Shown: piece after piece, positions 6,198 through 40,077 of the stretch | Numbering within the stretch: position 1 is the stretch's first letter | Layout: the number at the start of each line of letters is the position of its first letter | Source of the DNA: Escherichia phage vB_EcoD_Over9000 | Sequence record: NC_073079.1 | Length of the DNA stretch: 44,583 nucleotides | Strand: one strand, 5' to 3' | The notes under the pieces: model-generated | What the model saw: only the letters and a program-made list of their open reading frames with translations | What the model was told of the DNA's origin: nothing | The model's database searches: none | Program-made: the position numbers and the translations under genes

Positions 6198-6337
6198 TTT
6201 GTTTTCCTTCATATCTCTGTTGGTGTGCAACCAACATACGCAATGCAAGCGAATTTTGCGATTATTTTTATCGCTGATAATATTAAGGCGTGAAGTCAAG
6301 CGGGTGGCCCGCTTTGCCACAATCCCAGGGGGATAGC

Positions 6338-7039
6338 ATGAAACTTACTAAAGCAGAATATGACGCGTTGCCAGAAGGTATGAAGGCGCTTTTTGTTGCC
6401 GATGGCGATGGGTATAAATCAACCTTCATGACCGCAGAAGAGGTACAGGCGGAAATCAAGGGTCTGAAAGACAATAACGCGAAGCTGGTGAGCGAGAAGA
6501 AAGCAGAAGCTGAACGCCGCGCCGAAGCCGAGCGCCTTGCGAAAGAGAAAGAGGAAGCCGCCGCGCGCAAAAATGGCGACCTCGAAGCGATCGATAAGTC
6601 CTGGAAAGATAAGTTTGCAAAACACGAAGCAGACACATCGGGAAAAATCGAAGCCTACCGCAAGCAGATCCACGATCTAACCATCGGCAGCGCTGCCAAA
6701 GACCTGGCGTCGAAGCTGTTCGGTAAGAATGCGGGTATCATGCAACGCCACGTAATGGACCGCCTGACGCTGGAAGACGGCGAAGACGGCAGCTTGAAAG
6801 TGCGTGTCTTGCAGGATGGCAAACCGTCCGCGCTGACTATGGAAGAGCTTGAAAAAGAGTTCCGTAATAACGCCGATTTTGCATCTGTTCTGGCTGGCAC
6901 GCCCGCCGGTGGCGCGCCGAGCAAACCGACGCATGTTGTCGAAGATATGAAGTCGAAAATCACTATGGGACACAGCTTCGGCATCACCGACCTGACGAAA
7001 CAGGCGGGTGAAATCATCGCTAAAATGGGCGACGAGTAA
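6338..7039 (+). CDS. head scaffolding protein (putative)
   Basis: 233 aa from ATG 6338 (RBS AGGGGGAT); strongly charged Ala/Glu/Lys/Arg-rich coiled-coil segment; immediately upstream of the major capsid gene. Confidence 0.5.
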   Translation: MKLTKAEYDALPEGMKALFVADGDGYKSTFMTAEEVQAEIKGLKDNNAKLVSEKKAEAERRAEAERLAKEKEEAAARKNGDLEAIDKSWKDKFAKHEADTSGKIEAYRKQIHDLTIGSAAKDLASKLFGKNAGIMQRHVMDRLTLEDGEDGSLKVRVLQDGKPSALTMEELEKEFRNNADFASVLAGTPAGGAPSKPTHVVEDMKSKITMGHSFGITDLTKQAGEIIAKMGDE

Positions 7040-7136
7040 GCACATTGCCCGCGAAAGCGGGCGATTTTGCGAGCGCGTAAATCTAAGGTAACATTAACGG
7101 TACTGGGCGAATGCTCACAACTCAAAGGATTTCGAT

Positions 7137-8255
7137 ATGTCATTAACAGTGTTCCAGCGTAAACTCGTTACCGCGGTTACGCAAATGATCCCCGACAACC
7201 TGAACGTGTTCAACGCTGCCGCAAATGGCGCTGTTGTTCTCGGTACTGGTGAAGTGCTGAAGGATGTTGTAGAAAAAATGTCCGTAGGCTTGATCGCCAA
7301 CCTCGTTACCGACCGTAACGCCTACGCCCCTGTCGGCACTCCGGCAACCGCGAAAGTGCTGGCGCGTATGCTGACCAACTCGGTTAACCTTTCCGCAAAA
7401 GTGGGTCCGGTAGCAATCACTAAGGCTATGATGGCTAAGATCGAAACCAACGTTAACAGCGTTGCGGCTGAGATTGCGGCACAGGCTACTCAAGCGATTA
7501 TGCTGCACTACCTGAAAGCGGGTATCGGCGCAAGTAAAGCGGCGATCGAAAGCAACGAAGCGGCAAAATACACCCAACCGGCGCGCGTTGATGGCGTTGG
7601 CGGTCGTACCTTCCCGACCCTGGCAGACTTCCCGCTGGCGGCTTCTAAGTTCGGCGATCAGGCGTCTTTGATTAAATCCTGGTTTATGGACGGCGTTACC
7701 TGGGCAAACTTCATTGCCTACCAGGCGCTACCGTCTGCCGAGCAGGTATTCGCGATCGGCGATCTGCAGGTAATGGGTGATGGCCTGGGCCGTCGTTTCA
7801 TTATCTCCGATGCCGCTGCCGATGCTATGGGTAAGGGTATCATGCTGGGTCTGGTGCCTGGCGCTGTTGCGGTTACCACCAACGGCCTTGATATGCTGGC
7901 GCAGGAGAAAGGCGGTAACGAGAACATCGAACGTTGGTGGCAGGGCGAGTTCGACTTCAACGTGGCTGTTAAAGGCTACCGTCTGAAGGCGTCCGCTCGT
8001 ACCCAGATCGAAGGTGTGCGCTCGTTCACACTGAGCGATATCACCACCTCCGCGAACTGGGAACTGGACCAGGGCCAGGTAGACAACGCACCGGCAACCG
8101 TTCAGGACGTTGGCGCTGTGGGCGCTGTGGGCGATGGTGATACTAAAGGCCGTCGTAAGACACAGGCTGCGCAGGAAGTGCCGACCCGTCACATCAAGGA
8201 AACCGCTGGCGTACTGGTTACGCTGAAGGCGACTACCGCGACTACCGCGTCTTAA
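7137..8255 (+). CDS. major capsid protein
   Basis: 372 aa; RBS AAAGGA; follows scaffold and is followed by a strong intrinsic terminator, as expected for a highly expressed structural gene. Confidence 0.75.
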   Translation: MSLTVFQRKLVTAVTQMIPDNLNVFNAAANGAVVLGTGEVLKDVVEKMSVGLIANLVTDRNAYAPVGTPATAKVLARMLTNSVNLSAKVGPVAITKAMMAKIETNVNSVAAEIAAQATQAIMLHYLKAGIGASKAAIESNEAAKYTQPARVDGVGGRTFPTLADFPLAASKFGDQASLIKSWFMDGVTWANFIAYQALPSAEQVFAIGDLQVMGDGLGRRFIISDAAADAMGKGIMLGLVPGAVAVTTNGLDMLAQEKGGNENIERWWQGEFDFNVAVKGYRLKASARTQIEGVRSFTLSDITTSANWELDQGQVDNAPATVQDVGAVGAVGDGDTKGRRKTQAAQEVPTRHIKETAGVLVTLKATTATTAS

Positions 8256-8272
8256 CGGGCGCACATCCCAAA

Positions 8273-8301
8273 TGGGCGGGCTTATGCCCGCCTTTTTTTT
8301 A
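8273..8301 (+). terminator. intrinsic terminator after major capsid gene
   Basis: GGCGGGC-TTAT-GCCCGCC hairpin followed by eight T. Confidence 0.85.
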
Positions 8302-8306
8302 TAGGA

Positions 8307-8816
8307 GTGAATGAAATGTATGGCGACCCGCAAACATTTGTCGATTATGCCGCGGCGCGAGGCGTTGAAGTCACGCTGAGCGATGCAACGCGACACCTTA
8401 CCGTAGTTAATGACTTCCTTAACGGCATCAACTGGATCGGAGAACCCGCAGACCAGACCGGAATCGACGCATGGCCCCGCATAAATTACCCATCGGACGG
8501 TAAGCCGGTGCGCGACACTCTCACTGAAGTTGTGGCAGTAGTGCCTGCAGGGCAGATCGTAGATTTTGCATCAATCCCCATTGCCGTCGAGCAAGCCGTT
8601 TACAGGTTGGCGATGTTGGTGGCGGACGAGGTCGATATTTCTCCTGTTGGCAGTGGTAAGGAGACTATCCGCGAAACTGTTGGCCCGATCACGATGGAAT
8701 ATGACCCTGCGACGATTGGTAGCGGTGTCTCGTTCCCGTGGTGGGATGGCTTGCTGGGCCACTGGATTGACTCCGACGGCAACGCAGCGGGTAATTTTGA
8801 CGTATTCCGGGGGTGA
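8307..8816 (+). CDS. head completion / head-tail connector protein (putative)
   Basis: 169 aa ORF first after the capsid terminator; position equivalent to neck genes; no specific motif. Confidence 0.4.
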   Translation: MNEMYGDPQTFVDYAAARGVEVTLSDATRHLTVVNDFLNGINWIGEPADQTGIDAWPRINYPSDGKPVRDTLTEVVAVVPAGQIVDFASIPIAVEQAVYRLAMLVADEVDISPVGSGKETIRETVGPITMEYDPATIGSGVSFPWWDGLLGHWIDSDGNAAGNFDVFRG

Positions 8817-8817
8817 T

Positions 8818-8934
8818 ATGAATCCTGCATTACTGGCGGCTATTATCGCCGCAAATACTAAACGCCAACCAGAACCGGAGCCAGCACCAGAACCAGAACC
8901 ACCGGTACAGGAGGATGATAATGGCGGGCTTTAA
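8818..8934 (+). CDS. small Pro/Glu-rich protein (uncertain)
   Basis: 38 aa ORF (MNPALLAAIIAANTKRQPEPEPAPEPEPP...) starting 2 bp after the upstream stop; may be non-coding. Confidence 0.2.
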   Translation: MNPALLAAIIAANTKRQPEPEPAPEPEPPVQEDDNGGL

Positions 8935-9274
8935 TTACGCAGGATTAAAGCGGAAAGTGAATCCGCTGATTAAAAAATTCGGCATGACCGTTACGGTTAC
9001 GCGTCCGGGGTCGGTTGACCGCGTAGACGGCGACGAAGTGGTAATCCCGCCAACGTCGTTCGACGTCATAGGTCTTCGCGAGGAGTACAAGCCTAGCGAG
9101 ATCGACGGAACGCGTATCGTTACCGGTGATGTGAAGTTTTTATGTCGGGCGGTTGAGCAATTGCGGGTGGGCGACCTTGTCAACCTGAACGGCACTGACT
9201 ACCGTGTCGTTAACCCTAACCCACTGCAACCGGCGGGGACGACCATGCTGTTTCAACTACAGCTAAGGGGCTAA
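8921..9274 (+). CDS. head-tail joining protein (FII-like, putative)
   Basis: 117 aa from ATG 8921 preceded by AGGAGG (8910-8915); position in the neck module. Confidence 0.45.
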   Translation: MAGFNYAGLKRKVNPLIKKFGMTVTVTRPGSVDRVDGDEVVIPPTSFDVIGLREEYKPSEIDGTRIVTGDVKFLCRAVEQLRVGDLVNLNGTDYRVVNPNPLQPAGTTMLFQLQLRG

Positions 9275-9275
9275 C

Positions 9276-9869
9276 GTGGCTGAAGTCTACTCATTCGCCG
9301 CCACTATTGCTACGTGGGTGGATAAGACGAAGGAGAACAACGATAAGGCGGTGCGGGCGTACGGGATGCAAATACTCGGACGCCTTATTGAGATCTCCCC
9401 GGTGGGCGACCCTCGCCGGTGGAAAATTAACAGGGCTTACGCGCTGGCCCGCCAGCACGCGAACAAGGTGAACGCCGCGCAGCGTCGCAAGAATGGTGGC
9501 AAACTGAAGCGCGGGCAGAAAAAGCACGCCAGCGTGCTGGTATCATTCAAGACTAAAAACGGCAACGTCACGTTCCGCCAGCGTGGCTGGGCTGCGAAGA
9601 ATTACACCGGCGGACGCTTCCGGGGGAACTGGCAGGTTACGTTCGACCGACCGGCGGTTGGCGCTATCGACCGCGTGGACAAGGCCGGAACGGCAACATT
9701 AGCCGCTGGGCGTGAAGTGTTGGCGCACTATGATTCGAGTGAATACGGGTCGATCTGGTTTACTAACAATGTGCCGTATGCGCAGCGACTTGAGTATGGC
9801 TGGAGTAAACAAGCGCCCGCGGGGATTGTTCGCGTCGTAGCGGCAGAAATTAATTCAAAGGTGAAATAA
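9276..9869 (+). CDS. tail completion protein (Z-like, putative)
   Basis: 197 aa ORF with GTG start at 9276 (RBS AAGGGG); neck-module position between head-tail joining and tail terminator genes. Confidence 0.4.
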   Translation: MAEVYSFAATIATWVDKTKENNDKAVRAYGMQILGRLIEISPVGDPRRWKINRAYALARQHANKVNAAQRRKNGGKLKRGQKKHASVLVSFKTKNGNVTFRQRGWAAKNYTGGRFRGNWQVTFDRPAVGAIDRVDKAGTATLAAGREVLAHYDSSEYGSIWFTNNVPYAQRLEYGWSKQAPAGIVRVVAAEINSKVK

Positions 9870-10291
9870 TGAGCAATACTCTAATCCGCAAGGCGCTTAA
9901 CAGCGTAGTAGAAGAATTATCGGTAAGCCTGAGCACTAGCACGCGCCCGATAAAGGTTAACTGGGAGAACGTGAGCGGCGACCACGCAAAAGGCAGCGGT
10001 GTCTACCTGGAACCGTACCTGCTTCCGGCCCCTACCCAGTTTGTGGGCTTCCAGCAGAAGGGCCGTATCTATGCCGGTGTGTATCAGGTTGCCGTGGTGT
10101 TTCCTGCAGGCACTGGCACACAGTATGCGAGCGAACTGGCGGACGCCATCGCGACGTCTGACAAGTGGCAGGCCGTAAGGCTTACCGGCGCAGCGTTCCA
10201 GCTTCAGGACGCGCCATACACCAGTTCGGTGATTGAGGATGTTGATCGCGCCCGCATCGTGGTTACAGTGCCCTATTCCTGTTGTGCCTGA
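9869..10291 (+). CDS. tail terminator protein (U-like, putative)
   Basis: 140 aa; ATGA start/stop overlap with the upstream gene; directly precedes the major tail gene. Confidence 0.4.
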   Translation: MSNTLIRKALNSVVEELSVSLSTSTRPIKVNWENVSGDHAKGSGVYLEPYLLPAPTQFVGFQQKGRIYAGVYQVAVVFPAGTGTQYASELADAIATSDKWQAVRLTGAAFQLQDAPYTSSVIEDVDRARIVVTVPYSCCA

Positions 10292-10351
10292 TTTGGCGCA
10301 ATTCTGCGCGTGCTGTATCATTAAACCGTATATCTAAACAGGAGCTTTATT

Positions 10352-11077
10352 ATGGGTTATCAACTCCCCAACGGGTCCAGCGTCCAGATCGGGTCCGTAT
10401 TAGACAGCGGCATCGCTGTTACGGCAGCTACCAACGCCACCGCATCAATCTCTGTCCTTACGCAAGGTTGCGTAATTACCTGCGCGGCATCGCATGGCCT
10501 GGTTGTTGGCGACGTTGTTATGTTCACTAAAACCCCGTGGGTCCGAGCGCTTAACCGCGCATTCATCGTGGGTAAAGTAGCCGAGAACGACGTGACGCTG
10601 GCGCGCTTCGACTCCTCTGACGTCACAAAATACCCTACCGGCGCTTTCAGCGAAGGCACTCCGGGCGAAGTGGTGAAGGTGTCGGGCTTTATCGACTTCC
10701 CTTTCATTACTAACGTTGCCGTGTCGGGTGGCGACCAGCAGACTACTACCTTCCAGCCGTTGCAGGTGAACACCGCGATCAGTCTGAACACCACGAAAAA
10801 CCCGTTGGTCCAGACTTACACCTTCACCCACGACGAAGAAGACCCGATCCGCCCAATCCTGGAAGACCTGGACGACACACAGAAAACCACTGTGATTAAG
10901 TTCACTAACCCGGCAGCGGCAAGCGGCAAAGGTGAGATCCGTATTTACCCGGCAAAGGTATCTTTCCAGAAGATTCCTTCCGCTGAAGTAAACAACGTGG
11001 AAACGGTACAGTCCACTCTGACCATGCAGTCTGATATGGTTATCTACCGTAAGGATCTGGTCGAGGCGTTGTCTTGA
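10352..11077 (+). CDS. major tail protein (tail tube)
   Basis: 241 aa; RBS CAGGAG; followed by intrinsic terminator 11105-11131; immediately upstream of the G/GT chaperone pair. Confidence 0.65.
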   Translation: MGYQLPNGSSVQIGSVLDSGIAVTAATNATASISVLTQGCVITCAASHGLVVGDVVMFTKTPWVRALNRAFIVGKVAENDVTLARFDSSDVTKYPTGAFSEGTPGEVVKVSGFIDFPFITNVAVSGGDQQTTTFQPLQVNTAISLNTTKNPLVQTYTFTHDEEDPIRPILEDLDDTQKTTVIKFTNPAAASGKGEIRIYPAKVSFQKIPSAEVNNVETVQSTLTMQSDMVIYRKDLVEALS

Positions 11078-11104
11078 TTTGGTCGCTTAAATAGCGAGTG
11101 TTAA

Positions 11105-11131
11105 TATGGGGCCAGCACGGCCCCTTTTTTA
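11105..11131 (+). terminator. intrinsic terminator after major tail gene
   Basis: GGGGCC-AGCAC-GGCCCC hairpin followed by seven T. Confidence 0.8.
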
Positions 11132-11146
11132 TTGGAGAATACTACA

Positions 11147-11823: not shown

Positions 11824-12145
11824 TGAAGCGGGACAAGCGGGACGCCCCGTTTTGTCCCGCCCCTGTAAAACCGCATATCTAATCACTTTCATTGCATAAA
11901 CTCAAAGCGGGACAGGCGGGACGTCCCGTTTTGTCCCACCCCTGAAATGTGCATACCTATTCGAATTTCGTGCATAAAACAAACGGGACAGAAAGCGGGA
12001 CAAATGCGGGGCGGGACAAAGCGGGACAGCACCCCATCCCCACCAGTGCTGCCGCGGTTTTCAGCCGATCGGGACAGGCGGGACAAACCCCAGTCTTTCA
12101 GACTAGACGGGGGTCAACGGCCCCCCTCGTCTGAGACTGAATAAG
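11824..12145. repeat. iteron cluster (GCGGGACA boxes) plus conserved hairpin element, copy A
   Basis: About ten GCGGGAC(A/G) boxes, two ~80-bp tandem units (11826-11905, 11906-11985) each containing GCGGGAC-N10-GTCCC(G/A)C inverted repeats, then the ~50-bp element AGTCTTTCAGACTAGACGGGGGTCAACGGCCCCCCTCGTCTGAGACTGAATAA. Confidence 0.8.
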
Positions 12146-22049: not shown

Positions 22050-22075
22050 GAAAGCCCCGAAAGGGGCTTATTTGC
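22050..22075. terminator. bidirectional intrinsic terminator
   Basis: AAGCCCC-GAAA-GGGGCTT hairpin between convergent + gene (ends 22048) and the reverse-strand lipoprotein gene (ends 22068); T-rich on both flanks. Confidence 0.65.
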
Positions 22076-22286
22076 AGGTTGTGCTTTTGAAGTGGTCGAC
22101 CGACACATACTGGAAGTTGAATGGGTATCCCGCCCGTAACATTTTATGACCGCTAACGTCTGCAACCCCAAACACAGGGACGGAATACTCCACGCCACTA
22201 TTCATGTATGTCGCGTCGCAGACTTTAGTCGGCATGTTGGCACAACCCGACAAAAGAACCCCACAAATCATAATTAAAGTTTTCAT
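22068..22286 (-). CDS. outer-membrane lipoprotein, Cor/Llp-like superinfection-exclusion candidate
   Basis: 72 aa from ATG 22286 (RBS AGGAGAT on reverse strand); signal peptide MKTLIMICGVLLSGC with lipobox LSGC; reverse-strand gene wedged between tail tip and tail fiber genes. Confidence 0.55.
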   Translation of the reverse strand: MKTLIMICGVLLSGCANMPTKVCDATYMNSGVEYSVPVFGVADVSGHKMLRAGYPFNFQYVSVDHFKSTTCK

Positions 22287-22366
22287 GGTATCATCTCCTG
22301 TATTTGGTCGAGTTTTAGTATCGCACCGCTCGACCAGGATTGCAACCAATTTAAGAGGATTCAGCT

Positions 22367-24819: not shown

Positions 24820-25341
24820 TTATTTCAGCGCGCTACGTACCAGTGTTTTTTCCATGTTGCGGAAGTCTTCCGGCGTCATGAGGATTTTGGACCCGTCTTC
24901 GCCGGTGAGCACGACCATAGGCTGGACGTCCTGGTCTACGACGCCGAAATTGGCGGCTTTGACAGTCTTGCCCGCCGATGCCGAAGGATGCCACGCCCCT
25001 GCGGTGGCGATGGGCCAACCTTTAAGGCTATCGTATTGCGCTGCCGTTGTATCGATCTGAATCTCATCATGCACGGTCATGTAAGACTCGCCCAGCAGGG
25101 CGGCATACGCCACCAGATCCACGATGTTATCTTCCTGGTGCTTACGGTGCTGGCGCACCAGCTTCAGGCAGATCAGGAAGGTCCAGGCTTCTTGCTCTGT
25201 CAGGTCGCGACCGGTAAGCGCGTTAAACACGGCAGCGATTTGCTTAGCGCTGCGCTCCTCTTTCGCGTTGTCATAGCCATTCTCTTTCCCGCGCTGTTCC
25301 ATAGTGGTGGCGGCGTTTTTGCAGTATTCGTATGCTTTCAT
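24820..25341 (-). CDS. hypothetical protein (weak MazG-like helical signature)
   Basis: 173 aa; RBS AAGGAAA; N-terminal helices with EQEAW and EDNIVDLVAYAALL patterns reminiscent of MazG-type NTP pyrophosphohydrolases; speculative. Confidence 0.5.
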   Translation of the reverse strand: MKAYEYCKNAATTMEQRGKENGYDNAKEERSAKQIAAVFNALTGRDLTEQEAWTFLICLKLVRQHRKHQEDNIVDLVAYAALLGESYMTVHDEIQIDTTAAQYDSLKGWPIATAGAWHPSASAGKTVKAANFGVVDQDVQPMVVLTGEDGSKILMTPEDFRNMEKTLVRSALK

Positions 25342-25403
25342 TATGTTTTCCTTTTTAGCGTGGGGCCATATTGCCCCGACGCGTTAACTATAGTGCAACC
25401 AAC

Positions 25404-25874
25404 CTAGTGGTTGCAAGTGAATTTTGCAACGTTTATTGCGTAAATTTTCGGTACCAAATCGCTGCACGCCCGACGAATTGCCGCGATGTTCTTCTCGCAG
25501 TCCTCAATGATGACCAGTTCAGACACGTCCGCGTAGCAGACCATTTTGAACACGGCGCACGCCTTAAACTCTGGCGGCGGGGTGTCGTCCAGCATGTGGC
25601 GCATGAATAACCGGCCTACAGGGAAGACTTCCAGTTGTTTAGCGGTGGTGTCCCAACATTCTCGCTGCCGGTTGGTCAGATACGCGATCTCGAAGCCTTG
25701 CTCTTTATACATGCGCAGTAGCGGCAGCATATCCATGTTCAGGTCTTCGCGGACGTGCGCCTTGTGCCACTTCGCCCAAAAGGTGGATTTAGTTTTTATG
25801 CCAGGCACCAGATCGGCACGCGCATCGCTTGAGCCGTTAATAACGCCATCCAAATCGCAAATCAGTAATTTCAT
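25404..25874 (-). CDS. HAD-superfamily phosphatase (nucleotidase / polynucleotide phosphatase-like)
   Basis: 156 aa; N-terminal LICDLDGV matches the HAD DxDG(T/V) catalytic motif. Confidence 0.6.
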   Translation of the reverse strand: MKLLICDLDGVINGSSDARADLVPGIKTKSTFWAKWHKAHVREDLNMDMLPLLRMYKEQGFEIAYLTNRQRECWDTTAKQLEVFPVGRLFMRHMLDDTPPPEFKACAVFKMVCYADVSELVIIEDCEKNIAAIRRACSDLVPKIYAINVAKFTCNH

Positions 25875-26095: not shown

Positions 26096-26561
26096 GTAGC
26101 TCACTCTCGCTCATTATTTCAATTTGTGCGCTGCCGCATGGCGGCGCTTCGTCAAATATTATCAATTGCTGGCACTTGTTATTGCTCGGCCCGACTTCAC
26201 CGGTTACAGCATGTATGAATCGGATCCGCCAGTCCAGAAGAATTATCAGGTTTGCAGTCTTCCTGGCCAGCTTCGCCCACTTCGTCGACGTGTCCTGATT
26301 CAGTAGCATGACCGTCCGGCGTCCGTGCGCTGCGCACTCTACCCACGGCAGCGGATCGGAATACGGCGGATTGCACCACTTCCACCCTTTCAACTCGGAC
26401 CAGTCCACATCAAGCGCGCTGTGTTCCGCCGTGAAGTAACGTGGTAGCAGATGATTGGTGTCGCTTGCCGCCATATCGTAACGGAATCGGTATTTCCGAC
26501 GAAGCGGTTTAAATAAAGCTGGCGGCGTGCGCCAGCTATCTTTTTGCTCATTCTCCGTCAT
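26076..26561 (-). CDS. DNA N6-adenine methyltransferase (phage Dam family)
   Basis: 161 aa; WRTPP...DMAAS...WCNPPYSD matches the phage T1-type Dam family signature including the catalytic NPPY motif. Confidence 0.85.
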   Translation of the reverse strand: MTENEQKDSWRTPPALFKPLRRKYRFRYDMAASDTNHLLPRYFTAEHSALDVDWSELKGWKWCNPPYSDPLPWVECAAHGRRTVMLLNQDTSTKWAKLARKTANLIILLDWRIRFIHAVTGEVGPSNNKCQQLIIFDEAPPCGSAQIEIMSESELHEYLNR

Positions 26562-27006
26562 AGTCGGGATCTATCGCATACAGGGCGGTTTTCTTGCCAC
26601 TGGATAGCACGCGTTGGACTCGGGATAGCTCCGCCCTACTGAGCGGTCGGCTATCGGAATAGTAGCTGCCGTTTGCACGCCACGCTATACGCACCAGTCC
26701 TTTCCGCGGGATCGAAGACTGGCTGCCCTTCGGACGGACGTACTCCTCGGCCAGTTTGCAATGCTCGCGCAGACCTTCGGCAGTGATGCGGTTTAGCGCG
26801 ACGGTGGTTGTGTACCCGGTGCGCTGCATAATACCCATCAACTCATACAGCAGTTCGAAGCGCTCCTCTAACTCCTTGCGCGCCTTCTCCTCGCCTTCAT
26901 AGCTCGCCAGGTAGGTGTCCGCCAGCGCGTTCGCCCGTTCGACCTGTTCGCGGGCTTCGAGGCATTGCGCGGCCCAGTAATTTTTCTCTTCTTGTAAAAT
27001 TTTCAT
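26548..27006 (-). CDS. hypothetical protein (coiled-coil N-terminus)
   Basis: 152 aa; Glu/Lys/Ala-rich helical N-terminal half; promoter-like ATTGGTTGCAT copies upstream (27056-27085). Confidence 0.5.
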   Translation of the reverse strand: MKILQEEKNYWAAQCLEAREQVERANALADTYLASYEGEEKARKELEERFELLYELMGIMQRTGYTTTVALNRITAEGLREHCKLAEEYVRPKGSQSSIPRKGLVRIAWRANGSYYSDSRPLSRAELSRVQRVLSSGKKTALYAIDPDYDGE

Positions 27007-27087
27007 CGTGTTGTCTCCAGGTATTAAAAAAGGCGTCCAAACCGGACACCCTTAAGATAATGCAACCAATATGATTATGCAACCAAT

Positions 27088-29747: not shown

Positions 29748-29790
29748 CGTCATGTCTCCCAAAAATGGCGGGACAAGCCCGCCGTATTAA

Positions 29791-29964
29791 TTATTTTTGC
29801 TCTGCGCGGTAGCGGCGCTGCCGTTCGCGCTCTTTTTTATTGCGGCACGATTTGCACTCGGCCCGATACCCGTCCGGGCTGCGTGCAGTCTTACCAGTGT
29901 ATTTATGGAACTGGGATAGCGGTTTAATGCAGCCGCAATTACTGCAACGTTTTTCTTCAATCAT
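29791..29964 (-). CDS. small zinc-ribbon protein (putative)
   Basis: 57 aa from ATG 29964 (RBS GAGGG); CxxC...CxxC (CSNCGC ... CKSC) and basic C-terminal tail. Confidence 0.4.
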   Translation of the reverse strand: MIEEKRCSNCGCIKPLSQFHKYTGKTARSPDGYRAECKSCRNKKERERQRRYRAEQK

Positions 29965-30004: not shown

Positions 30005-30283
30005 CTATGCGACCAATTCAGCAACCAATAAATCACAGTCGGCGATGTTGTCTATAACGCGAACGTCAGCGCCGCGGCGGGCCATCCGCTCATGTTCACG
30101 TACCTGGTGCGGCTTCGGTTTTCCTCCGGGGCGCTTCACTTCGACGAACACTATTTTGCCGTTGATGATAATAATCAGGTCGGGAGCACCTGCGCGCCCC
30201 TCCCATGCCAGTTTTCTGCAGAATCCGCCGACCTCTTTAACCCGTTTCATAAGGTGACGCTGCACCTTGCCTTCGGGTGTCAT
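30005..30283 (-). CDS. VRR-NUC domain nuclease
   Basis: 92 aa; GAPDLIIIINGKIVFVEVKRPGGKPKPHQ matches the VRR-NUC PD-(D/E)xK signature (PD...EVK...Q). Confidence 0.8.
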   Translation of the reverse strand: MTPEGKVQRHLMKRVKEVGGFCRKLAWEGRAGAPDLIIIINGKIVFVEVKRPGGKPKPHQVREHERMARRGADVRVIDNIADCDLLVAELVA

Positions 30284-30471: not shown

Positions 30472-30475
30472 AATC

Positions 30476-33775: not shown

Positions 33776-33865
33776 TTTCCAATTCCTCATTTTCACATGT
33801 ATCGGGGTTATTGGAAGCCACCCCGTTCGGCTTGGTTGCAAATTTACTCGGTTGCGCCTAAGCGG

Positions 33866-34108: not shown

Positions 34109-35531
34109 TGCTTAAGTCCTCGTCAGTAGCTTCCGACCACGCAGGGCGAGGGTCGTCGATTGGGGCTAACACCGGTTTGGCTGGTGCGCGCGTGATTTTA
34201 GCACACAGCTTCGCCCACACTTTCGGCTTTTCGTCCTTCAGTACCTTCTCGGCATCCGTAGGGCTGAGCAATGTTTCTTTGTACATCACATCGCGCTTGA
34301 TCCGGGCCTTCGTGAAGATTTCAATAACTTCGCTCTCGTCCGCCCACTTACGGATCCCTTCCTTACCGGCAACCATCTTGAGGCCCAGCGATTCACCATC
34401 ACCCGCCATTACAGCCTTAAATACCGCGGACTCGATCGCTTTGATGTGCTGGCGCATTGCGTCCAGACCTTCATAAGCCTTGCGCAGTTCCGCAGCGCTC
34501 ATAGCGCCTGGGGCCGCTTCTTTCTTACCGCGCTTCGCACGTCGTGCCGCCTTCCTGGCTTCGCGGGCCATATTGCGGTCGTGATTGGCGCATTCTTCCT
34601 CGGTCGCCACGCTCACGTCGTCGCCCAGGTCTTCGTCGGTTGCCGTTGGAGGTGTCATCGTGTCGATTGCGGCCTTAGCGCGGGCACTACACTGATCCGC
34701 AAATCGACACCACTGGCACGCATCAACGCTGGGCCGGAAGTCTGCGCGGGTGAGTCCCTTCTTGCCTCGGGAATACGCCTCCAGTGCGGCAATAGCGCGC
34801 TTGGATGCAAACTTCGCGAATATCTCCAGCGCTTCTACCGAAATATCCCACTCCGACGCCCCGCCGCAATACGGCTGGAAGATAACCAGTCGCACGGTTG
34901 TAATGTCGTACATAGTTTGCAGCTTGCGCAGCAGTCCGAGCGCGTACAACATAAGCTGTTTGTTCTCTTTCGCCTCGACCTTATGCCGCCCGGTCTTCAG
35001 GTCGCCAACAATCAGCATGTACGTTCCATCGGTCTTTTTCATTACCATGACCATATCGGCAGTACCGAACGTTTTAATCCTGTTGCCGTCGATCTCGTAG
35101 CCTGAGTGAAGGACGCGGGTCAGATCGGCGCGCATCTCAAGCTGGACAAACTCCGCCACTTCGAGGAGCGGTCGCCAGTGGTCGATGTACGCGTCGCACT
35201 GTTTCACCATGTCGTCGTTGACCAGTACGCCGCCTTTCGGTGCTTTAGGGTGTGCCTTTACTGGCCCCTTGCCTTCGTTCTCGACGTAGCACCCTTTATA
35301 CGCCTTCGCGGTTATCAGCTTTTCCCCAGCAATGATGCGGTTTAGCACGACCTCTGATACAGTGTGCATACTTGTACCGTTAATCGCAGCTTGCCCGGAT
35401 TCGTTCGGGATATCTTTTTCGACCACCAGGGCGGCAGGGCAACCCATCCATTTTTTAGCACCGGACGGTCCGAGTAATGAGTGTTCCGTATTGCTACCGG
35501 ATTGCGTTTTACGTTTTGGTTTAATCGCCAT
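34101..35531 (-). CDS. Cas4-like PD-(D/E)xK nuclease (DUF2800 family)
   Basis: 476 aa; N-terminal LLGPSGAKKWMGCP...NGTSMHTV matches the DUF2800 start signature; Cys cluster CQWCRFADQC; charged C-terminal extension. Confidence 0.7.
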   Translation of the reverse strand: MAIKPKRKTQSGSNTEHSLLGPSGAKKWMGCPAALVVEKDIPNESGQAAINGTSMHTVSEVVLNRIIAGEKLITAKAYKGCYVENEGKGPVKAHPKAPKGGVLVNDDMVKQCDAYIDHWRPLLEVAEFVQLEMRADLTRVLHSGYEIDGNRIKTFGTADMVMVMKKTDGTYMLIVGDLKTGRHKVEAKENKQLMLYALGLLRKLQTMYDITTVRLVIFQPYCGGASEWDISVEALEIFAKFASKRAIAALEAYSRGKKGLTRADFRPSVDACQWCRFADQCSARAKAAIDTMTPPTATDEDLGDDVSVATEEECANHDRNMAREARKAARRAKRGKKEAAPGAMSAAELRKAYEGLDAMRQHIKAIESAVFKAVMAGDGESLGLKMVAGKEGIRKWADESEVIEIFTKARIKRDVMYKETLLSPTDAEKVLKDEKPKVWAKLCAKITRAPAKPVLAPIDDPRPAWSEATDEDLSNE

Positions 35532-35719
35532 TATTCCACCCTTGAAAACTGAGCAATGTAATAATCATGTTCAACATTGGCCCGCTTAGCGGCATTGTTC
35601 ATGGTAGCCGCCAGTCCTCGGGCTTGCATCCAGCAGCAATTCCAGTTTTGATTCATAACAATTTCCGGTTGCTCGTCGCCGGTAATACGGCAACGAAATA
35701 AAACAAAGAAGATAGCCAT
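35531..35719 (-). CDS. small hypothetical protein
   Basis: 62 aa ORF tightly packed between neighbouring reverse-strand genes. Confidence 0.3.
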   Translation of the reverse strand: MAIFFVLFRCRITGDEQPEIVMNQNWNCCWMQARGLAATMNNAAKRANVEHDYYIAQFSRVE

Positions 35720-35971
35720 TTATTTTGTCTCCCAGCGGTCAATTGTTCTTGCTTCGGATGCAACTGCGAAGCGAACATATTCCAGATTGGAATCCGCCCA
35801 AATATAAAAATCGGGGTTAGTAAAGGTGGTGCGCTTAATTTGCGCGGGGGTGTTGCGGCGTTTATCTATTACGGCAACTCGCGACTGAAAGCTGCCGATG
35901 CGTTCGAACAGCCAATAGTACGGGCGCTGGTCGCGGGAGTCCACCGCCTCGATTAGCGTGAAGCGTGCCAT
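35720..35971 (-). CDS. small hypothetical protein
   Basis: 83 aa ORF; start 10 bp downstream (in transcript direction) of terminator 35982-36011. Confidence 0.4.
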   Translation of the reverse strand: MARFTLIEAVDSRDQRPYYWLFERIGSFQSRVAVIDKRRNTPAQIKRTTFTNPDFYIWADSNLEYVRFAVASEARTIDRWETK

Positions 35972-35981
35972 TGTCTCGTCC

Positions 35982-36011
35982 TCTAAAAAGAGGCCCGCTA
36001 ATCTGCGGGCC
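35982..36011 (-). terminator. intrinsic terminator (reverse strand) after the acidic-protein gene
   Basis: GGCCCGC-AGATTA-GCGGGCC hairpin on the reverse strand followed by CTTTTTAG. Confidence 0.6.
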
Positions 36012-36019
36012 GGAATATA

Positions 36020-36535
36020 TTAATCTTCCAGTTCGAAATAGGTTTCGACGATTTCTTTTAGCTCTTTGTGGAAGTCTTCGACGTCGTCATCTTCCAGCTT
36101 GGCGATTGATTTGATCTCGAACGATTCCAGCAGGTCGTCGAATTCGTCGTTCGCATCGTCGTCATCGCCACCGGCGATAATCGCGGCATACTGTTTGATT
36201 TCGTCGCGCATCTCTGCCAGCGGGTCGGCATCTTTCTTACCTTTGCCTTTCGCCGGTGCTTTCTTAGACTTAGCCGGTTTTTCGTCTTCGGCATCGTCGT
36301 CGTCATCTTCTACGACTTCTTTTTTAGCCTTACCTTTCGCCGGGGCTTTTTTAGATTTAGCCGGTTTTTCGTCTTCGGCGTCATCGTCGTCATCTTCGAC
36401 AACTTCTTTTTTGGCCTTAGACGGCTTCTTGTCTTCCTGTTTACCAACGGCAGCGCCAACGGTTTCATAATGCTTTGCAATGGTTTCCAGTGCTACTACG
36501 CCGCGAGTGATCAGGTTTACGATTTGCTCAAACAT
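36020..36535 (-). CDS. highly acidic protein with tandem repeats (DNA-mimic / anti-restriction candidate)
   Basis: 171 aa from ATG 36535 (RBS GGAG); two 28-aa repeats KKEVVEDDDDDAEDEKPAKSKKAPAKGK; acidic C-terminus; own terminator 35982-36011; first gene of the reverse block. Confidence 0.55.
   Translation of the reverse strand: MFEQIVNLITRGVVALETIAKHYETVGAAVGKQEDKKPSKAKKEVVEDDDDDAEDEKPAKSKKAPAKGKAKKEVVEDDDDDAEDEKPAKSKKAPAKGKGKKDADPLAEMRDEIKQYAAIIAGGDDDDANDEFDDLLESFEIKSIAKLEDDDVEDFHKELKEIVETYFELED
36248..36415. repeat. 84-bp tandem repeat (2 copies) within the acidic-protein gene
   Basis: Near-identical units ...CTTTCGCCGG(T/G)GCTTT(C/T)TTAGA(C/T)TTAGCCGGTTTTTCGTCTTCGGC(A/G)TC(G/A)TCGTCGTCATCTTC... 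Confidence 0.7.
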
Positions 36536-36771
36536 GGTATATCTCCGATTGGTTAAGTTTAGGTGTCGGCAGTTAACTTCGTCGGTGGCCTTAACATATT
36601 GCCAGGTTACGCGTTCTCCCGTTCGGGTAGTGGACCTGGTTATATAATCACGGTTGGGAATCCTGACACTTCGATCCGGCCCCTGCGTTGCCCCTCTCCA
36701 GTTTGCGTCCTGCATCCTGTCGACGGGGTGAATATTAGATTGGTTGCATGTGGGGTGTCAACAACTAATTT

Positions 36772-36807
36772 CAAAAAAAAAGCGCCGAGGCAAAATGCGG
36801 CGGCGCT
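36772..36807 (-). terminator. orphan intrinsic terminator (reverse strand) in the early intergenic region
   Basis: GC-rich hairpin (36781-36807) followed on the reverse strand by nine T (A-run 36773-36781 on +); no reverse-strand ORF upstream of it. Confidence 0.5.
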
Positions 36808-36877
36808 AACCAATAAGAGACAATGAGACGGGAATTATTATTACACGCGTGCGCGCCCGTTTCAATATCCAAAGAAT

Positions 36878-36906
36878 TTGACACCGTGCAGTTTTGGGTG
36901 TAGTTT
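36878..36906 (+). promoter_or_regulatory. sigma70-like promoter upstream of HTH regulator gene
   Basis: Perfect -35 TTGACA (36878-36883), 17-bp spacer, weak -10 TAGTTT (36901-36906). Confidence 0.4.
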
Positions 36907-36937
36907 CGTTGGTCATTAACCAGCTGAGGGCAGAGCA

Positions 36938-37267
36938 ATGAATGTAAACGACGCAATCGAAATGTTAACGAAGACTGTTTGCAGTGAGACAAGCCGGTCA
37001 TGGGCATACACCGATGCCGTGGGGGCTGTGTTATTTGAAATCGAACGACTGCGGCTTACCGAAAAAGAATTGCGCGCCAGGCTGGAACTACTCAACGGTA
37101 CAGCAGCAAGCAAGCTGCAAAAACACAATGAAGAAATGGAAGAATACAAAAAGCAGGTTATCCGTTTGCGCGCCGAGGGTAAATCATGGGCGATGATTGC
37201 CGAGTTGACCGGAATTAATCAGAGCACAGTGCGCTCCTGGGTACGCAATAATAAAACTTCTAAGTAA
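36938..37267 (+). CDS. helix-turn-helix DNA-binding protein (putative transcriptional regulator)
   Basis: 109 aa; C-terminal GKSWAMIAELTGINQSTVRSWVRN is an HTH; promoter-like TTGACA-17-TAGTTT at 36878-36906; RBS GAGGG. Confidence 0.6.
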   Translation: MNVNDAIEMLTKTVCSETSRSWAYTDAVGAVLFEIERLRLTEKELRARLELLNGTAASKLQKHNEEMEEYKKQVIRLRAEGKSWAMIAELTGINQSTVRSWVRNNKTSK

Positions 37268-37277
37268 GGCCACGGCA

Positions 37278-39515
37278 ATGAGCTTGATTAAATTCGCTGT
37301 AACAAAACCCGCTAAAAAAGGCGAAAAAGCCAGGGCGGAAAACTTCCAGATGACGACCGATGAGTTTTTCGAATTTATCAAAGATGCGAAAGAAATCTCC
37401 TCGGTGCATATCAACAAGACGGAAGATAAAGCCGAGTACGCGCGCCGCAAGCGTAAGGCCGATGGCATCGTGGCGTATACCAGTGACGGATTGCGTCGTA
37501 AGACCAGTGCGGTGGACCGCTCGATCCTGTTCTTCGATATCGACCGTACCGACACCCGCACCTTACGCCGCTGCCGTAAGGCGTTCATCGACGCGGGACT
37601 GGAGCACGTCTTCCACACCACCACCGGCGACCGCCACCCGCTGAAGGGCGGCACGCGTTGCGCCCGTTTCCTGGTGCTCACTGACAAGCCTGTACCGGCT
37701 GAAGACCTGGGCCGCGTCCAGTATGCACTATTACACCAACTGGGTCTGTCAGATGTGGCCTTCGACGATTGCACGAAAGACACAAACCGCCTGATGTACC
37801 TGCCACACCAGCAGTCTGTTATTAAGTGCCACTACGGCAAGCGTGCCCGCGTCCGTCGTCTGCTTCGCCTGGCGGATAAGTTGGGCGTGGAGAAGGAGGA
37901 AGTACGCCGCGAGCTTACCCAGGGCGACGACGCAGTGGCAGACGGCATTCTGGACTGGTGCTTCCAGGCAGGATTCGAGGAGTTATCCTCCGGTCGCGGT
38001 TATGAAGTGCCGTGCCCGAACGAACATCTGCACAGCGGCGAAGGGTCGACGGCTATCATGGTCAAGGATGGCGAGATCCGTTTCAAGTGTATGCACACCG
38101 GCAACGAGTGTTGCTCGGAACTGAACAGACACCAGCACCTAGCACTACGTCTTATCGGAATCCCGGACCACCTGAACGTCGAACCGCACAACATGTCACG
38201 TAAGCAAATCGCCGCCATCCTGCCAGGTCTGGACGACGAGGAAGTGGAATCGTGCTATGCGCATATAGTTGATGCGGTCGGTGACGGCGACGAGTACGGC
38301 GTATGTACCGACGCGGACCTGGATAACGAACCGGTCGCACTGTTCAGTAAGCACGACCCGATAATCGAGGGGTTGATTAACTTTAAATCGACCTGGTACA
38401 TGGCTGGCGAGTCGAACATCGGTAAATCGTTCTACGTGCTTGGCCAAATGGGCGCGGTTGCCGCAGGTATTCCGTTCGGCGGTGCGAAGGTCGTCCAGTC
38501 GCATTGCTTCTATTTCGATGCGGAAGGTGGCGAAGCCTCCAACCAGCGTAAGGAAGCATTGCAGATCAAATATGAGCACGATCTCGACAAGCTGCACATT
38601 ATCGACCTGCAATCTCGCGGCTGGGATATCACCAGCAAATCCGGCTTGCGTGAAGTTATCAGCTTCATCAACCGCACCGCTAACGGCGAACCGGTTGGCC
38701 TGGTGGCGTTCGACTCACTCAACCAGACTGTTGCGCTGCGGTCCGCCGATGCAAAACCGTTCGACGAGAACAACGCCAGCGATATGGGTGAAGTGGTCAA
38801 AGCGCTGAAGGCCATTGCGGAAAATACAGGCGGCAGTGCGGGCGTCATCCACCACCCGGCTAAAGGTGCAAACGGCAGCAGATCCCCCCGCGGGTCCGGC
38901 GCGCTGCATGGTGCTGTCGATTCTGCGTTCTTCCTGGAGCAGCCTGACGACAACCAGCCAGGACAACTGAACCTGTATCACGAAAAGGCGCGTAATGGCA
39001 TCAAGCAAGCGCCGCGCGGCTTCGTCCTGCTCAAGTGCAAGGTTAAGGTTGATCTCCGCAAGTCCGAGGCGTTCGAAGCCCACCAGTCCACCAGCACTGG
39101 TCCTGACTTCGGCGATGTGGTTGCCGGTTGGGACGTAAAGCCAATCGCATCCACGCCACGCGACGAGACTCTTTACCTCGTACCGGTCGCCCTGGCGCCG
39201 TTCGCTATCGAACAGGCAAAGGCCGCTGGCAAAGCAGCAGTTAAGGAAGAGAACGCCGCAGGCCCGCGCAACGAAAAAGAGAAAGTGCTTTATGCGGCAC
39301 TGGAAAAACTGATGGAAGATAACCCGGACCATACCGGATTCAGTAAATCGGCAATTGTCCGCCAGGCGGGACTGGCGAAAGGTGGCACCTCGACGAAGGC
39401 AATCGACGATATGGTCGAGCGCGGAGTGTTAGGTTTTTATACCGATCCGCGCACCGGGGCCATCTATGGGTCGTCGAATATCGTCATCAAAACGAATATA
39501 CCCATCACGCTTTAA
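37278..39515 (+). CDS. DNA primase / replicative helicase (AAA_25 / DnaB-RepA-like ATPase with N-terminal primase-like domain)
   Basis: 745 aa; Walker A GESNIGKS and Walker B LVAFDSL in C-terminal half; Cys/His cluster CPNEHLH...CMHTGNECC in N-terminal half; followed by an ori-like repeat region. Confidence 0.75.
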   Translation: MSLIKFAVTKPAKKGEKARAENFQMTTDEFFEFIKDAKEISSVHINKTEDKAEYARRKRKADGIVAYTSDGLRRKTSAVDRSILFFDIDRTDTRTLRRCRKAFIDAGLEHVFHTTTGDRHPLKGGTRCARFLVLTDKPVPAEDLGRVQYALLHQLGLSDVAFDDCTKDTNRLMYLPHQQSVIKCHYGKRARVRRLLRLADKLGVEKEEVRRELTQGDDAVADGILDWCFQAGFEELSSGRGYEVPCPNEHLHSGEGSTAIMVKDGEIRFKCMHTGNECCSELNRHQHLALRLIGIPDHLNVEPHNMSRKQIAAILPGLDDEEVESCYAHIVDAVGDGDEYGVCTDADLDNEPVALFSKHDPIIEGLINFKSTWYMAGESNIGKSFYVLGQMGAVAAGIPFGGAKVVQSHCFYFDAEGGEASNQRKEALQIKYEHDLDKLHIIDLQSRGWDITSKSGLREVISFINRTANGEPVGLVAFDSLNQTVALRSADAKPFDENNASDMGEVVKALKAIAENTGGSAGVIHHPAKGANGSRSPRGSGALHGAVDSAFFLEQPDDNQPGQLNLYHEKARNGIKQAPRGFVLLKCKVKVDLRKSEAFEAHQSTSTGPDFGDVVAGWDVKPIASTPRDETLYLVPVALAPFAIEQAKAAGKAAVKEENAAGPRNEKEKVLYAALEKLMEDNPDHTGFSKSAIVRQAGLAKGGTSTKAIDDMVERGVLGFYTDPRTGAIYGSSNIVIKTNIPITL

Positions 39516-39534
39516 CGGCGACCGATGACGACCT

Positions 39535-39654
39535 GAAAGATTAAATTTTGCGCGCATTGGTTGCCGATATGGGAATCCCCATATCGCTAAAAGATTAAAT
39601 TTTGCGCGCATTGGTTGCCATTTTGAGTGTTTTTAGTCGGTCGCATTGGTTGCC
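39535..39654. repeat. direct repeats with intervening inverted repeat (ori-like region downstream of primase/helicase)
   Basis: 31-bp direct repeat (G/A)AAAGATTAAATTTTGCGCGCATTGGTTGCC at 39535-39565 and 39589-39619, partial third copy CGCATTGGTTGCC at 39642-39654; hairpin GATATGGG-AATC-CCCATATC between; AT-rich stretch follows. Confidence 0.7.
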
Positions 39655-39689
39655 GTGTAGTGTAAATATAATGAATAGTTATGCAGTTT

Positions 39690-39870
39690 TATTGCATAAA
39701 GTAAGCGGGACAAAAAGCGGGACAAACTTAGGGCGGGACAAAGCGGGACAGCACCCCCGTCCCGCCCCGGATGACGCGGCTTCCAGAGGAGCGGGACAGC
39801 GGGACAGCACCCCAGTCTTTCAGACTAGACGGGGGTCAGTGGCCCCCCTCGTCTGAGACTGAATAAAATC
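39690..39870. repeat. iteron cluster (GCGGGACA boxes) plus conserved hairpin element, copy B
   Basis: About 190 bp roughly 85-90 percent identical (by eye) to 11975-12145, including the same ~50-bp hairpin element with only loop changes (TCAACGG vs TCAGTGG). Confidence 0.8.
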
Positions 39871-40021
39871 CGGGATTGCAAAATACACGGCAGCATGACG
39901 CGAAGTGCGGTCGCGGATGAACTAGGCAACCAATGCGAGTTACATTATGCTGAGTGAAAAATGCGGTTTGCAGTCACAGCTGATAGCGATCAACTTTTTC
40001 ATGCGCGTGATTAATATTGGT

Positions 40022-40050
40022 TGCATCCAGCCGGGCACCCTGCTATATTG
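40022..40050 (+). promoter_or_regulatory. sigma70-like promoter upstream of gene 40078
   Basis: TTGCAT (40022-40027), 17-bp spacer, TATATT (40045-40050); followed by palindromic element TTGGTTGCACACCAA and RBS AGGAGGG. Confidence 0.5.
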
Positions 40051-40077
40051 GTTGCACACCAACAGGAGGGCGGAACA

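Follow-up and report, generated by a model that had tools for sequence, protein, structure and literature searches.

A conserved sequence box in Dhillonvirus promoters that may act both as a regulator site and as a −35 element

The genome of Escherichia phage vB_EcoD_Over9000 (NC_073079.1; the entire stretch of 44,583 nucleotides [nt] is referred to here as the window) contains a short word that recurs between its genes, and this raises the question of whether the word is a promoter element, an operator for a regulatory protein, or both. We refer to the element as the box; it reads (A)TTGGTTGC(A/C), with TTGGTTGC as its conserved core. Megablast identified the window as a complete genome of the genus Dhillonvirus. 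Over 17 kb it matches Escherichia phage TheodorHerzl at about 93% identity, and the 186 matching records also include HK578, JL1 and Sodalis phage SO-1. Dhillonviruses (HK578, JL1 and several BASEL phages) are standard test phages for anti-phage defense and phage engineering, and their transcription program has so far been left unannotated. From sequence comparisons, we favor with a probability of roughly 0.55 the view that the box is a genus-wide cis-regulatory element that would be read by a trans-acting protein, probably a temporal regulator of the repressor type, and would also serve as a −35 element. Searchable literature on the motif and on promoters, transcription start sites or RNA-seq of Dhillonvirus and HK578 contains no description of the box; it apparently had not been described before and represents a familiar kind of phage control element.

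The initial annotation had claimed that the word occurs far more often than expected by chance, and shuffling of the sequence bore this out. The exact decamer ATTGGTTGCA is present in seven copies in the window (0.13 expected), and 18 copies are found when one mismatch is allowed (3.05 expected; 0 of 100 shuffles reached 18). At up to two mismatches the excess vanishes (41 copies versus 41.6 expected), so that the word is sharply defined. Of its core TTGGTTGC there are 17 copies, against expectations of 1.9 and, with an order-3 Markov model, 1.7, and ATTGGTTGC is the commonest 9-mer of the window. The decamer copies with at most one mismatch begin at positions 6226, 22341, 25394, 27061, 27078, 30008, 30020, 39925 and 40776 on the minus strand and at 25406, 33831, 33902, 36739, 39556, 39610, 39645, 40016 and 40047 on the plus strand; the positions given originally were right to within 1–14 nt, while the copies at 40776 (intragenic and conserved) and 33902 had been overlooked.

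According to a curated gene map, 8.3% of the window is intergenic, and this small fraction harbors 13 of the 18 decamer copies (binomial p ~5e-11) and 13 of the 17 core copies (p ~1.5e-11) in full length. Three further decamer copies (25406, 30008 and 30020) lie within the final zero to eight codons of a gene. The copies are spread across 34 kb over about eight intergenic regions, a number that had been overstated as more than ten, and the structural module is free of boxes except at two antisense moron promoters. Gaps between paired copies vary (8, 12, 13, 14, 16, 17, 31 and 35 nt), and the pairs are mostly arranged as direct repeats.

When the eight box regions were aligned for up to 17 distinct Dhillonvirus sequences, the identity of the box cores was 0.993, versus 0.903 for other eight-column windows of the same intergenic alignments (Mann-Whitney p 1.6e-7, a value that is indicative only since the windows overlap). 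Spacers between box and −10 region vary freely. In the divergent lineages L007, L004 and L145, the last of which was found through an exhaustive hidden Markov model (HMM) search, the flanking sequences are unalignable and the proteins are 40–80% identical to those of the window; boxes are nevertheless present at the same promoters and in the same registers. In Salmonella phage Shemara, a member of the syntenic sister genus Cornellvirus, the core is found once (1.3 expected), and the slot of a Dhillonvirus helix-turn-helix (HTH) gene to which we return below encodes a Cro/CI-type regulator. The claim of recurrence hence withstood all three checks (enrichment over shuffled sequence, intergenic bias and phylogenetic footprint), and the alignments provide strong evidence that the boxes are under selection for both word and position. 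Enrichment, intergenic location, a fixed −10 register and purifying selection across divergent relatives are observed properties of the box; that the promoters are active, that a protein binds the boxes, that its effect is negative and that it is encoded by the phage is what we infer from them.

What do the boxes have to do with promoters? The copies were aligned together with their flanks and subjected to a relaxed scan for −35 and −10 elements, and the promoters predicted in this way are pattern matches only. Seven sites combine a TTG at −35, a spacer of 16–18 nt, a −10 hexamer of the TAnnnT type or with A2/T6, and co-orientation with a gene, which we took as the hallmarks of sigma-70 promoters; most spacers measure 17 nt, the −10 hexamers match at four to five of six positions, and two are TG-extended. 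A stricter scan recovers three of these seven predicted promoters. In five of them (class B), the box itself supplies the −35 hexamer as TTGCAA, TTGCAT or TTGCTG, 17–18 nt upstream of a −10-like hexamer, a finding that supports the original reading of the word as a promoter element. The two others (class A) are the SSB promoter and P_L, the promoter for leftward early transcription; each has a canonical TTGAC(A/C) −35 hexamer and carries an inverted box in the spacer adjoining the −10 region. A second copy that does not act as a −35 element accompanies four of the five class B promoters. Twelve of the 16 promoter-region copies are oriented with the downstream gene, which had been described as the usual case; those at 25406, 33831 and 39925 are inverted, and the 36739 copy is inverted with respect to its own promoter. 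Distances to the start codon, initially put at 25–80 bp, were 20–71 nt for nine copies.

One class B promoter is that of the operon extending from gp49 to the lysis genes. On the plus strand, it consists of TTGCAT (40021), a 17-nt spacer and a TG-extended TATATT (40044), with boxes at 40016–40025 and 40047–40056. The second box covers −10 to about +1, is followed by ACCAAC, and ends 20 nt from the ATG at 40077. Across 16 sequences the two boxes show little or no change, and the spacer between them (40026–40043) is the most visible example of free variation. In the interval from the predicted start to the ribosome-binding site, an ACCAA word turns up at 40058, at 6220 and again in L145.

On the minus strand, the tandem that had been reported proved real, with copies at 27061 and 27078 and a period of 17 nt (27061–27087); it is located upstream of the gene at 26548–27006 and the Dam operon. 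The predicted promoter draws its TTGCAT (27082) from the 27078–27087 copy and has a 17-nt spacer and a TATCTT −10 hexamer (27059), and the 27061–27070 copy occupies the spacer up to 1 nt from the −10 hexamer. The two copies are 17 nt apart in the window and in L007, and 13 nt apart in L145. Just downstream of this promoter there is a strong hairpin followed by a U-run (27018–27087, minus strand; −14.5 kcal/mol, z = −3.8), which is kept in L007 and L145. Since the predicted start lies inside the 5′ arm of this hairpin, transcripts reading through from upstream would terminate, and transcripts from the 27082 promoter could not fold it.

A second tandem on the minus strand, with a 12-nt period (30008–30029), overlaps the last eight codons of the VRR-NUC gene and precedes the gene at 29787–29960 and those downstream of it. 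Here the −35 hexamer TTGCTG (30024) comes from ATTGGTTGCT (30020–30029), the spacer has 17 nt, the −10 hexamer is TATAGT (30001), and ATTGGTCGCA (30008–30017) lies in the spacer and ends 6 nt before the −10 hexamer. The 12-nt pair spacing is kept in all three divergent lineages, and a block of 24 nt is conserved in L007, L143 and L145. The palindrome TGCAACC-N8-GGTTGCA described in the initial annotation is present exactly at 25394–25415, as the inverted pair TGCAACCA-N6-TGGTTGCA with boxes on both strands, and it belongs to the class B promoter upstream of the gene at 24820–25341. This minus-strand promoter obtains its TTGCAA (25416) from the plus-strand copy 25406–25415, followed by an 18-nt spacer and TATAGT (25392); the minus-strand copy 25394–25403 fills the spacer, again ending 1 nt before the −10 hexamer.

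The fifth class B promoter (minus strand) comprises TTGCAA (22345), a 17-nt spacer and a TG-extended GATACT (22322); its box (22341–22350), upstream of the small gene 22068–22286, is unchanged in four genomes although the spacer differs. An inverted repeat, GGTCGAG...CTCGACC, brackets the −10 region of this promoter (22310–22340, minus strand). Both of its arms are co-changed in HK578 and SO-1 (GGTTGAG...CTCAACC), the pairing is broken in TheodorHerzl, and the downstream arm resembles a degenerate inverted box, TCGACCAAAT.

Among the class A promoters, P_L (36761–36732, minus strand) consists of TTGACA (36761), an 18-nt spacer and TAATAT (36737). Its inverted box (36739–36748) is located in the spacer with its end 1 nt from the −10 hexamer, and when read on the plus strand it also yields TTGCAT-16-TAATTT. 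At P_L, 16 distinct sequences, L007 and L143 among them, share GCAACCAATCTA without any change, and L145 is arranged alike. The SSB promoter (minus strand) is formed by TTGACC (33869), a 17-nt spacer and TAAATT (33846), with two inverted boxes at 33831–33856: CTTGGTTGCA (33831–33840, plus strand) spans about −6 to +4, and the degenerate CTCGGTTGCG (33847–33856), in place of which relatives have CTTGGTTGCG, fills the spacer and adjoins the −10 hexamer. In L007 and L145, the SSB promoter likewise has a canonical TTGAC(A/G) −35 hexamer and an inverted box adjoining the −10 region. These predictions provide a first promoter and operator map of the non-structural half of the genome; in the HK578 record, the annotated promoters are three consensus ones only, all of them in the divergent region.

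Given five promoters in which TTGCAx is correctly spaced from a −10 hexamer, one explanation would be a family-specific, extended −35 consensus read by host sigma-70, with the extra copies as leftovers of duplications or overlapping promoters and with no dedicated factor. Two further observations would suit this explanation: the box has stayed constant while the phage proteins diverged strongly, as expected for a signal imposed by the host, and the 36739 copy can also be read as a rightward promoter. We nonetheless regard it as improbable. The best-conserved part of the box, (A)TTGG, precedes the hexamer and covers about −40 to −36, a stretch in which it corresponds to no sigma-70 or UP-element consensus. 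The second copies at 27061, 40047 and 6226 have no −10 hexamer at 16–18 nt and are still conserved in L007 and L145; the inverted copies adjoin the −10 region of promoters that already have a perfect −35 element; and the isolated 39925 copy is the only invariant block of its variable stretch, at which the relaxed scan of both strands found no promoter. The copies unable to act as a −35 element thus include those at 27061, 25394, 40047, 6226, 33831, 33847, 36739 and 39925, of which the 40047 and 6226 copies overlap the −10/+1 region, 20–28 nt from the ATG. Because copies are conserved where RNA polymerase reads no −35 element, a pure consensus fails for the set as a whole, and a sequence-specific factor is needed. 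The operator reading, also put forward initially, is supported in the same way by at least nine other conserved copies that are placed in a spacer, over −10/+1, inverted, or in isolation.

Several other kinds of sites were considered and rejected. The sigma-54 consensus is TGGCAC-N5-TTGCA, with GG and GC one helical turn apart; in the box, TGG and TTGCA are adjacent (4 nt from GG to GC), nor do any two boxes together provide the 10-nt spacing. Sites of the CytR/LacI type, of the NtrC type and for IHF are not known to match the box in sequence. A methyltransferase target or a Chi-like site would not be limited to the regions between genes. In the case of an RNA hairpin at TTGGTTGCACACCAA, the 5′ arm would be upstream of the predicted start.

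How could a box of this kind operate? We propose that it is embedded in the host-type sigma-70 promoters of nearly all non-structural units and of two antisense moron units, where it would fulfil two roles. The TTGCAx part would be the −35 hexamer of the promoters at 22345, 27082 and 30024 (minus strand), at 40021 (plus strand) and, through the inverted copy, at 25416 (minus strand), while a DNA-binding protein would recognize all copies in a sequence-specific manner. Once seated at −22 to −13 or across the start site, such a protein would keep RNA polymerase out, and the most likely consequence would be repression or temporal shut-off and a modulation of early and middle promoters. Promoters with a TTG −35 element, an optimal spacer and a good −10 hexamer fire without an activator by the ordinary rules of sigma-70. 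The box-bearing promoters look competent unaided, and negative control is favored for this reason. With a defined word of 8–10 bp, mutation of individual boxes should deregulate specific units.

A number of considerations weigh against a repressor-type regulator that reads a box doubling as a −35 element. Searchable literature holds no transcription-start, binding or expression data for Dhillonvirus. The exact −10 register in five promoters is equally expected of an activator box or of a pure promoter consensus; classical dimeric repressors do not usually have sites with such variable pair spacing and such a predominance of direct repeats; in L145, the change in the candidate HTH protein is not mirrored in the box; and the invariance of the box across such divergent phages would also fit a host-encoded reader.

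In the main rival, a phage activator acts at, or instead of, the −35 element (as a class II activator or through sigma appropriation, as with T4 MotA/AsiA) and switches on delayed-early or middle promoters after P_L and P_R have fired, while P_L and the SSB promoter, as early promoters, are damped through the copies in their spacers. We consider this possible but unlikely. It would account for an asymmetric box whose copies are predominantly co-oriented with transcription, for the fixed −10 distance in five promoters with a non-canonical −35 hexamer (TTGCAx, three to four of six matches), and for the fact that both promoters with a canonical −35 element carry the box only inverted in the spacer. 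The HTH protein, moreover, scores above the Pfam threshold for Sigma70_r4_2, a domain that reads −35 elements, and the canonical promoter of its gene is box-free in the window, as expected if the product acts elsewhere. However, with its center at about −35.5 the box would make an activator clash with sigma region 4 unless the latter is remodeled; the copies in spacers, at −10 and at +1 sit where activators do not bind; the apparent competence of the promoters leaves an activator little to do; and the variation of the HTH protein in L145 is not matched by a change in the box. Pfam scans of 40 proteins of the window, among them nearly all small non-structural open reading frames (ORFs), revealed no MotA or AsiA domain, with the reservation that very divergent analogs could exist.

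A more far-reaching variant, to which we give somewhat less credence still, is a previously unknown global switch of a virulent siphophage, in which a small phage protein on the −35-like word replaces or blocks sigma region 4, depending on register and orientation, and in this manner re-programs RNA polymerase at about ten promoters. Its effector would be the sigma-region-4-like HTH protein or an unrecognized partner, and the system would be an analog of MotA/AsiA of independent origin. The MotA box of phage T4 is similar in being a short, asymmetric word at many promoters of a virulent phage that is co-oriented with transcription, lies in the −35 region at a fixed distance to a normal sigma-70 −10 hexamer and is conserved within its group. 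It differs in its sequence (TTTGCTTTA for MotA, ATTGGTTGCA here) and in its position, since the MotA box, (a/t)(a/t)(a/t)TGCTT(t/c)A, is centered at about −30 and replaces the −35 element, whereas the Dhillonvirus box extends from about −40 to −31 and retains the TTG. Furthermore, the Dhillonvirus box has extra copies in the spacer, over −10/+1 and in inverted orientation.

For the repressor-type regulator that we favor, the operators of lambda and P22 (Cro, CI; OR/OL) offer a comparison. There, too, several sites per early promoter lie over the −35 element, the spacer and the −10 hexamer, and one arm of the divergent early region begins with a small HTH gene, the place at which the sister genus of the Dhillonviruses has its Cro/CI-type gene. 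Lambda operators, however, are 17-bp dyads at two loci that are read by dimers, whereas the Dhillonvirus box is an asymmetric 8–10-mer at no fewer than eight promoters, mostly in direct repeats with a single inverted pair (25394–25415), and the phage is virulent; none of the 40 proteins scanned reached the threshold for an HTH_3-family repressor. The Cox boxes of P2 and the p4 sites of phi29 may offer a parallel in so far as small phage proteins bind asymmetric direct repeats over promoter elements, repressing some promoters and activating others. Cox boxes, on the other hand, form phased arrays at one or two promoters, and the p4 sites upstream of A3 have the form of inverted repeats; no homology of the box system to either, in sequence or protein, was found. 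The CII sites of lambda (TTGC-N6-TTGC) resemble the box as TTGC direct repeats straddling the −35 region of promoters with a weak −35 element, but their period is fixed at 10 bp, whereas the Dhillonvirus pairs are 8–35 nt apart and the conserved word is longer; a CII-like protein was not detected.

Which protein might read the box? The initial annotation had suggested binding assays with the HTH proteins of the phage, and one recognizable candidate emerged, for which the evidence is equivocal. It is a protein of 109 amino acids (aa; 36938–37267, plus strand), the homolog of HK578 gp45, encoded at the head of the rightward early operon, before the helicase-primase gene. Matches to HTH_23, HTH_28 and Sigma70_r4_2 are all above threshold, and Pfam and PHROG scans of the 40 proteins gave it as the sole clear DNA-binding candidate among the early genes. 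An AlphaFold2 (AF2) model with a predicted local distance difference test (pLDDT) score of 84 shows a long helix (residues 21–79) followed by a C-terminal HTH; Foldseek comparisons with the PDB returned generic tri-helical HTH matches only, with non-significant E-values, and a sequence search of the PDB was uninformative. Across the genus, the last 60 residues are invariant (LELLNGTAASKL...STVRSWVRN), and the N-terminal 45 are hypervariable and in places non-homologous. The family is confined to Dhillonvirus-type contigs: a scan of viral sequences and of a single metagenome for divergent homologs found mainstream Dhillonviruses only, and the exhaustive HMM search yielded one useful divergent homolog, P0025 on L145, which is 45% identical.

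The invariant C-terminal domain fits a conserved DNA target, yet there are two such targets, the box and the repeat GCGGGACA. The latter is present in 16 copies (2.1 expected) in two non-coding regions. Region A (11828–12085) separates the tail chaperone genes from the tape measure gene; region B (39705–39806) is located downstream of the helicase-primase gene. Both regions end in the same long hairpin (12088–12145 and 39813–39866) and contain TTATGCA...TGCATAA palindromes. In the SO-1 record they are annotated merely as repeat regions; promoter box and GCGGGACA repeats, formerly lumped together under that label, can now be separated, and the GCGGGACA repeats are probably origin iterons that are independent of the box.

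Box and HTH gene co-occur in the Dhillonviruses, and the sister genus, with another regulator in the slot, is box-free. Co-variation, for which a single divergent homolog is available, gives another picture. The recognition helix of P0025 reads VSTIKNWIYRK instead of the VSTVRSWVRN of the window's HTH protein; in L145 the box (ATTGGTTGC) is unchanged, and the region-B iterons are GGGTGCCA instead of GCGGGACA (L145 12680–12890 versus window 39705–39806). L007, L004 and L143 have the invariant HTH domain together with GCGGGACA iterons, and their helicase-primase is as far from the window's as that of L145 (~68%). This one evolutionary switch suggests that the HTH protein may bind the iterons, and hence the origin, rather than the box. 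For the box it is the only recognizable candidate, and a tentative one. Should a dedicated binder exist, it would constitute with its box a compact, portable regulator-operator pair.

Two other phage proteins were dismissed as binders. The gp46-like protein (36020–36535, minus strand) is acidic, of K/E/D-rich low complexity and of variable length. It is encoded by the first gene of the leftward (P_L) operon, measures 115–179 aa in different strains and is followed directly by a terminator (36011–35992); it could be a DNA mimic or an anti-defense protein. The gp58-like protein has a weak N-terminal GerE match, and its gene is preceded by boxes in relatives but not in the window; the box-less phage Shemara lists a similarly annotated metallophosphatase-like protein, whose likeness to gp58 is by annotation only.

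With no phage protein found that is conserved enough to account for the box, a conserved enterobacterial DNA-binding protein recruited by it has to be weighed as well; we think this quite unlikely. The invariance of the box in phages of E. coli and Sodalis and in very divergent lineages would be explained, and the box begins with ATTGG, a "Y-box" that is reportedly bound by CspA-family proteins at the hns and gyrA promoters. On the other side, conservation runs past ATTGG through TTGC, the syntenic, Salmonella-infecting sister genus shows no enrichment, and no E. coli regulator is known to have a consensus that matches TTGGTTGC.

Least probable, in our estimation, are sites for replication, packaging or recombination, such as accessory origin sites near the helicase-primase gene. 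This idea draws on the four copies that lie to either side of the region-B iterons, just past that gene, and on the fact that HTH gene and helicase-primase gene form one operon and have been treated by others as replication-initiation genes. Most copies, however, are distributed over eight promoter regions and 34 kb, in −10 register and ahead of start codons; no box is present in region A, the other region with iterons; and there is no strand bias with respect to the genome ends, the orientation tracking gene direction instead. The boxes were also rejected as origin iterons themselves, since their copies are dispersed over eight regions, and it is the other word, GCGGGACA, that forms the clusters in regions A and B.

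The four copies around region B are arranged as follows. Three cgcATTGGTTGCC copies (39556, 39610 and 39645; 39556–39654, plus strand) mark its left edge, upstream of a TATAAT (39667) and the iterons, and ATTGGTTGCC (39925–39934, minus strand) marks its right edge. The first two are inside a 54-bp duplication (39536–39565 and 39590–39619), which adds one box and a hairpin and is common to the window and the related genome L005, not to the three reference phages. The counterpart in L145 has a pair of copies 17 nt apart, the second of which adjoins TAATAC.

One of the two antisense moron units is found inside the structural module, upstream of position 6226 on the plus strand. Its box, GTTGGTTGCA (6226–6235, minus strand), is located 28 nt upstream of the ATG at 6197 and overlaps a −10-like TATGTT; the operon below it on the minus strand consists of 5883–6197 and the Nmad5 gene (5079–5843). 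Relatives have two copies here, 14 nt apart, with the arrangement TTGCAA-N18-TATATT, one in the spacer and one over −10/+1. In the window, a 14-bp deletion in this stretch (6198–6260) removed one copy that TheodorHerzl, HK578 and SO-1 have kept. The assignment of the second gene of this operon rests on a match to nucleotide modification associated domain 5 (Nmad5; E = 1e-60), and the same slot holds a shorter gene annotated as RusA-like or "DNA polymerase III beta" in TheodorHerzl and SO-1.

An exact copy at 40776–40785 (minus strand) is antisense inside the gene 40589–40861; it has no −10 hexamer downstream, and its conservation in four genomes may simply be coding constraint. Two extra boxes, inverted with respect to the gene, are present upstream of the gp58-like metallophosphatase gene in HK578 (L002 42099–42131), SO-1 (L003 43626–43658) and L005 (15749–15781); in the window, this gene has a different N-terminus and is box-free upstream.

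As for the setting, the gene order of the window is the same as that in annotated relatives. The structural module (55–24175, plus strand) is followed by a replication and modification cluster that reads leftward from 36535 down to 24202 and by the divergent early control region (36536–36937); from 36938 onward, the rightward arm comprises the HTH gene, the helicase-primase gene, the non-coding region B, small genes and the lysis genes. Rfam and tRNA scans gave no match.

Beyond the genus, IMG/VR was scanned for tandems of the form ATTGGTTGC-N(2-25)-TTGGTTGC, which yielded mostly chance matches and coding tandem arrays with a period of 27/54 nt. One unrelated viral contig (L029, IMGVR_UViG_3300038463_000167; GC content 56%) has about 15 TAATTGGTTGCATC copies in both orientations within 450 bp (2750–3200). 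No proteins are common to this contig and the window, and the array is either a coincidence or a separate use of the same word as an iteron. Within the window, a small leftward unit (36770–36865, minus strand) in the divergent region has a TG-extended promoter, TTGAAA-17-AATAAT (36865–36837), and after about 60 nt an intrinsic terminator (~36812–36770). It contains a box-like ATTGGTTAGC and corresponds to a 36-aa ORF in the TheodorHerzl annotation, but could instead specify a small RNA.

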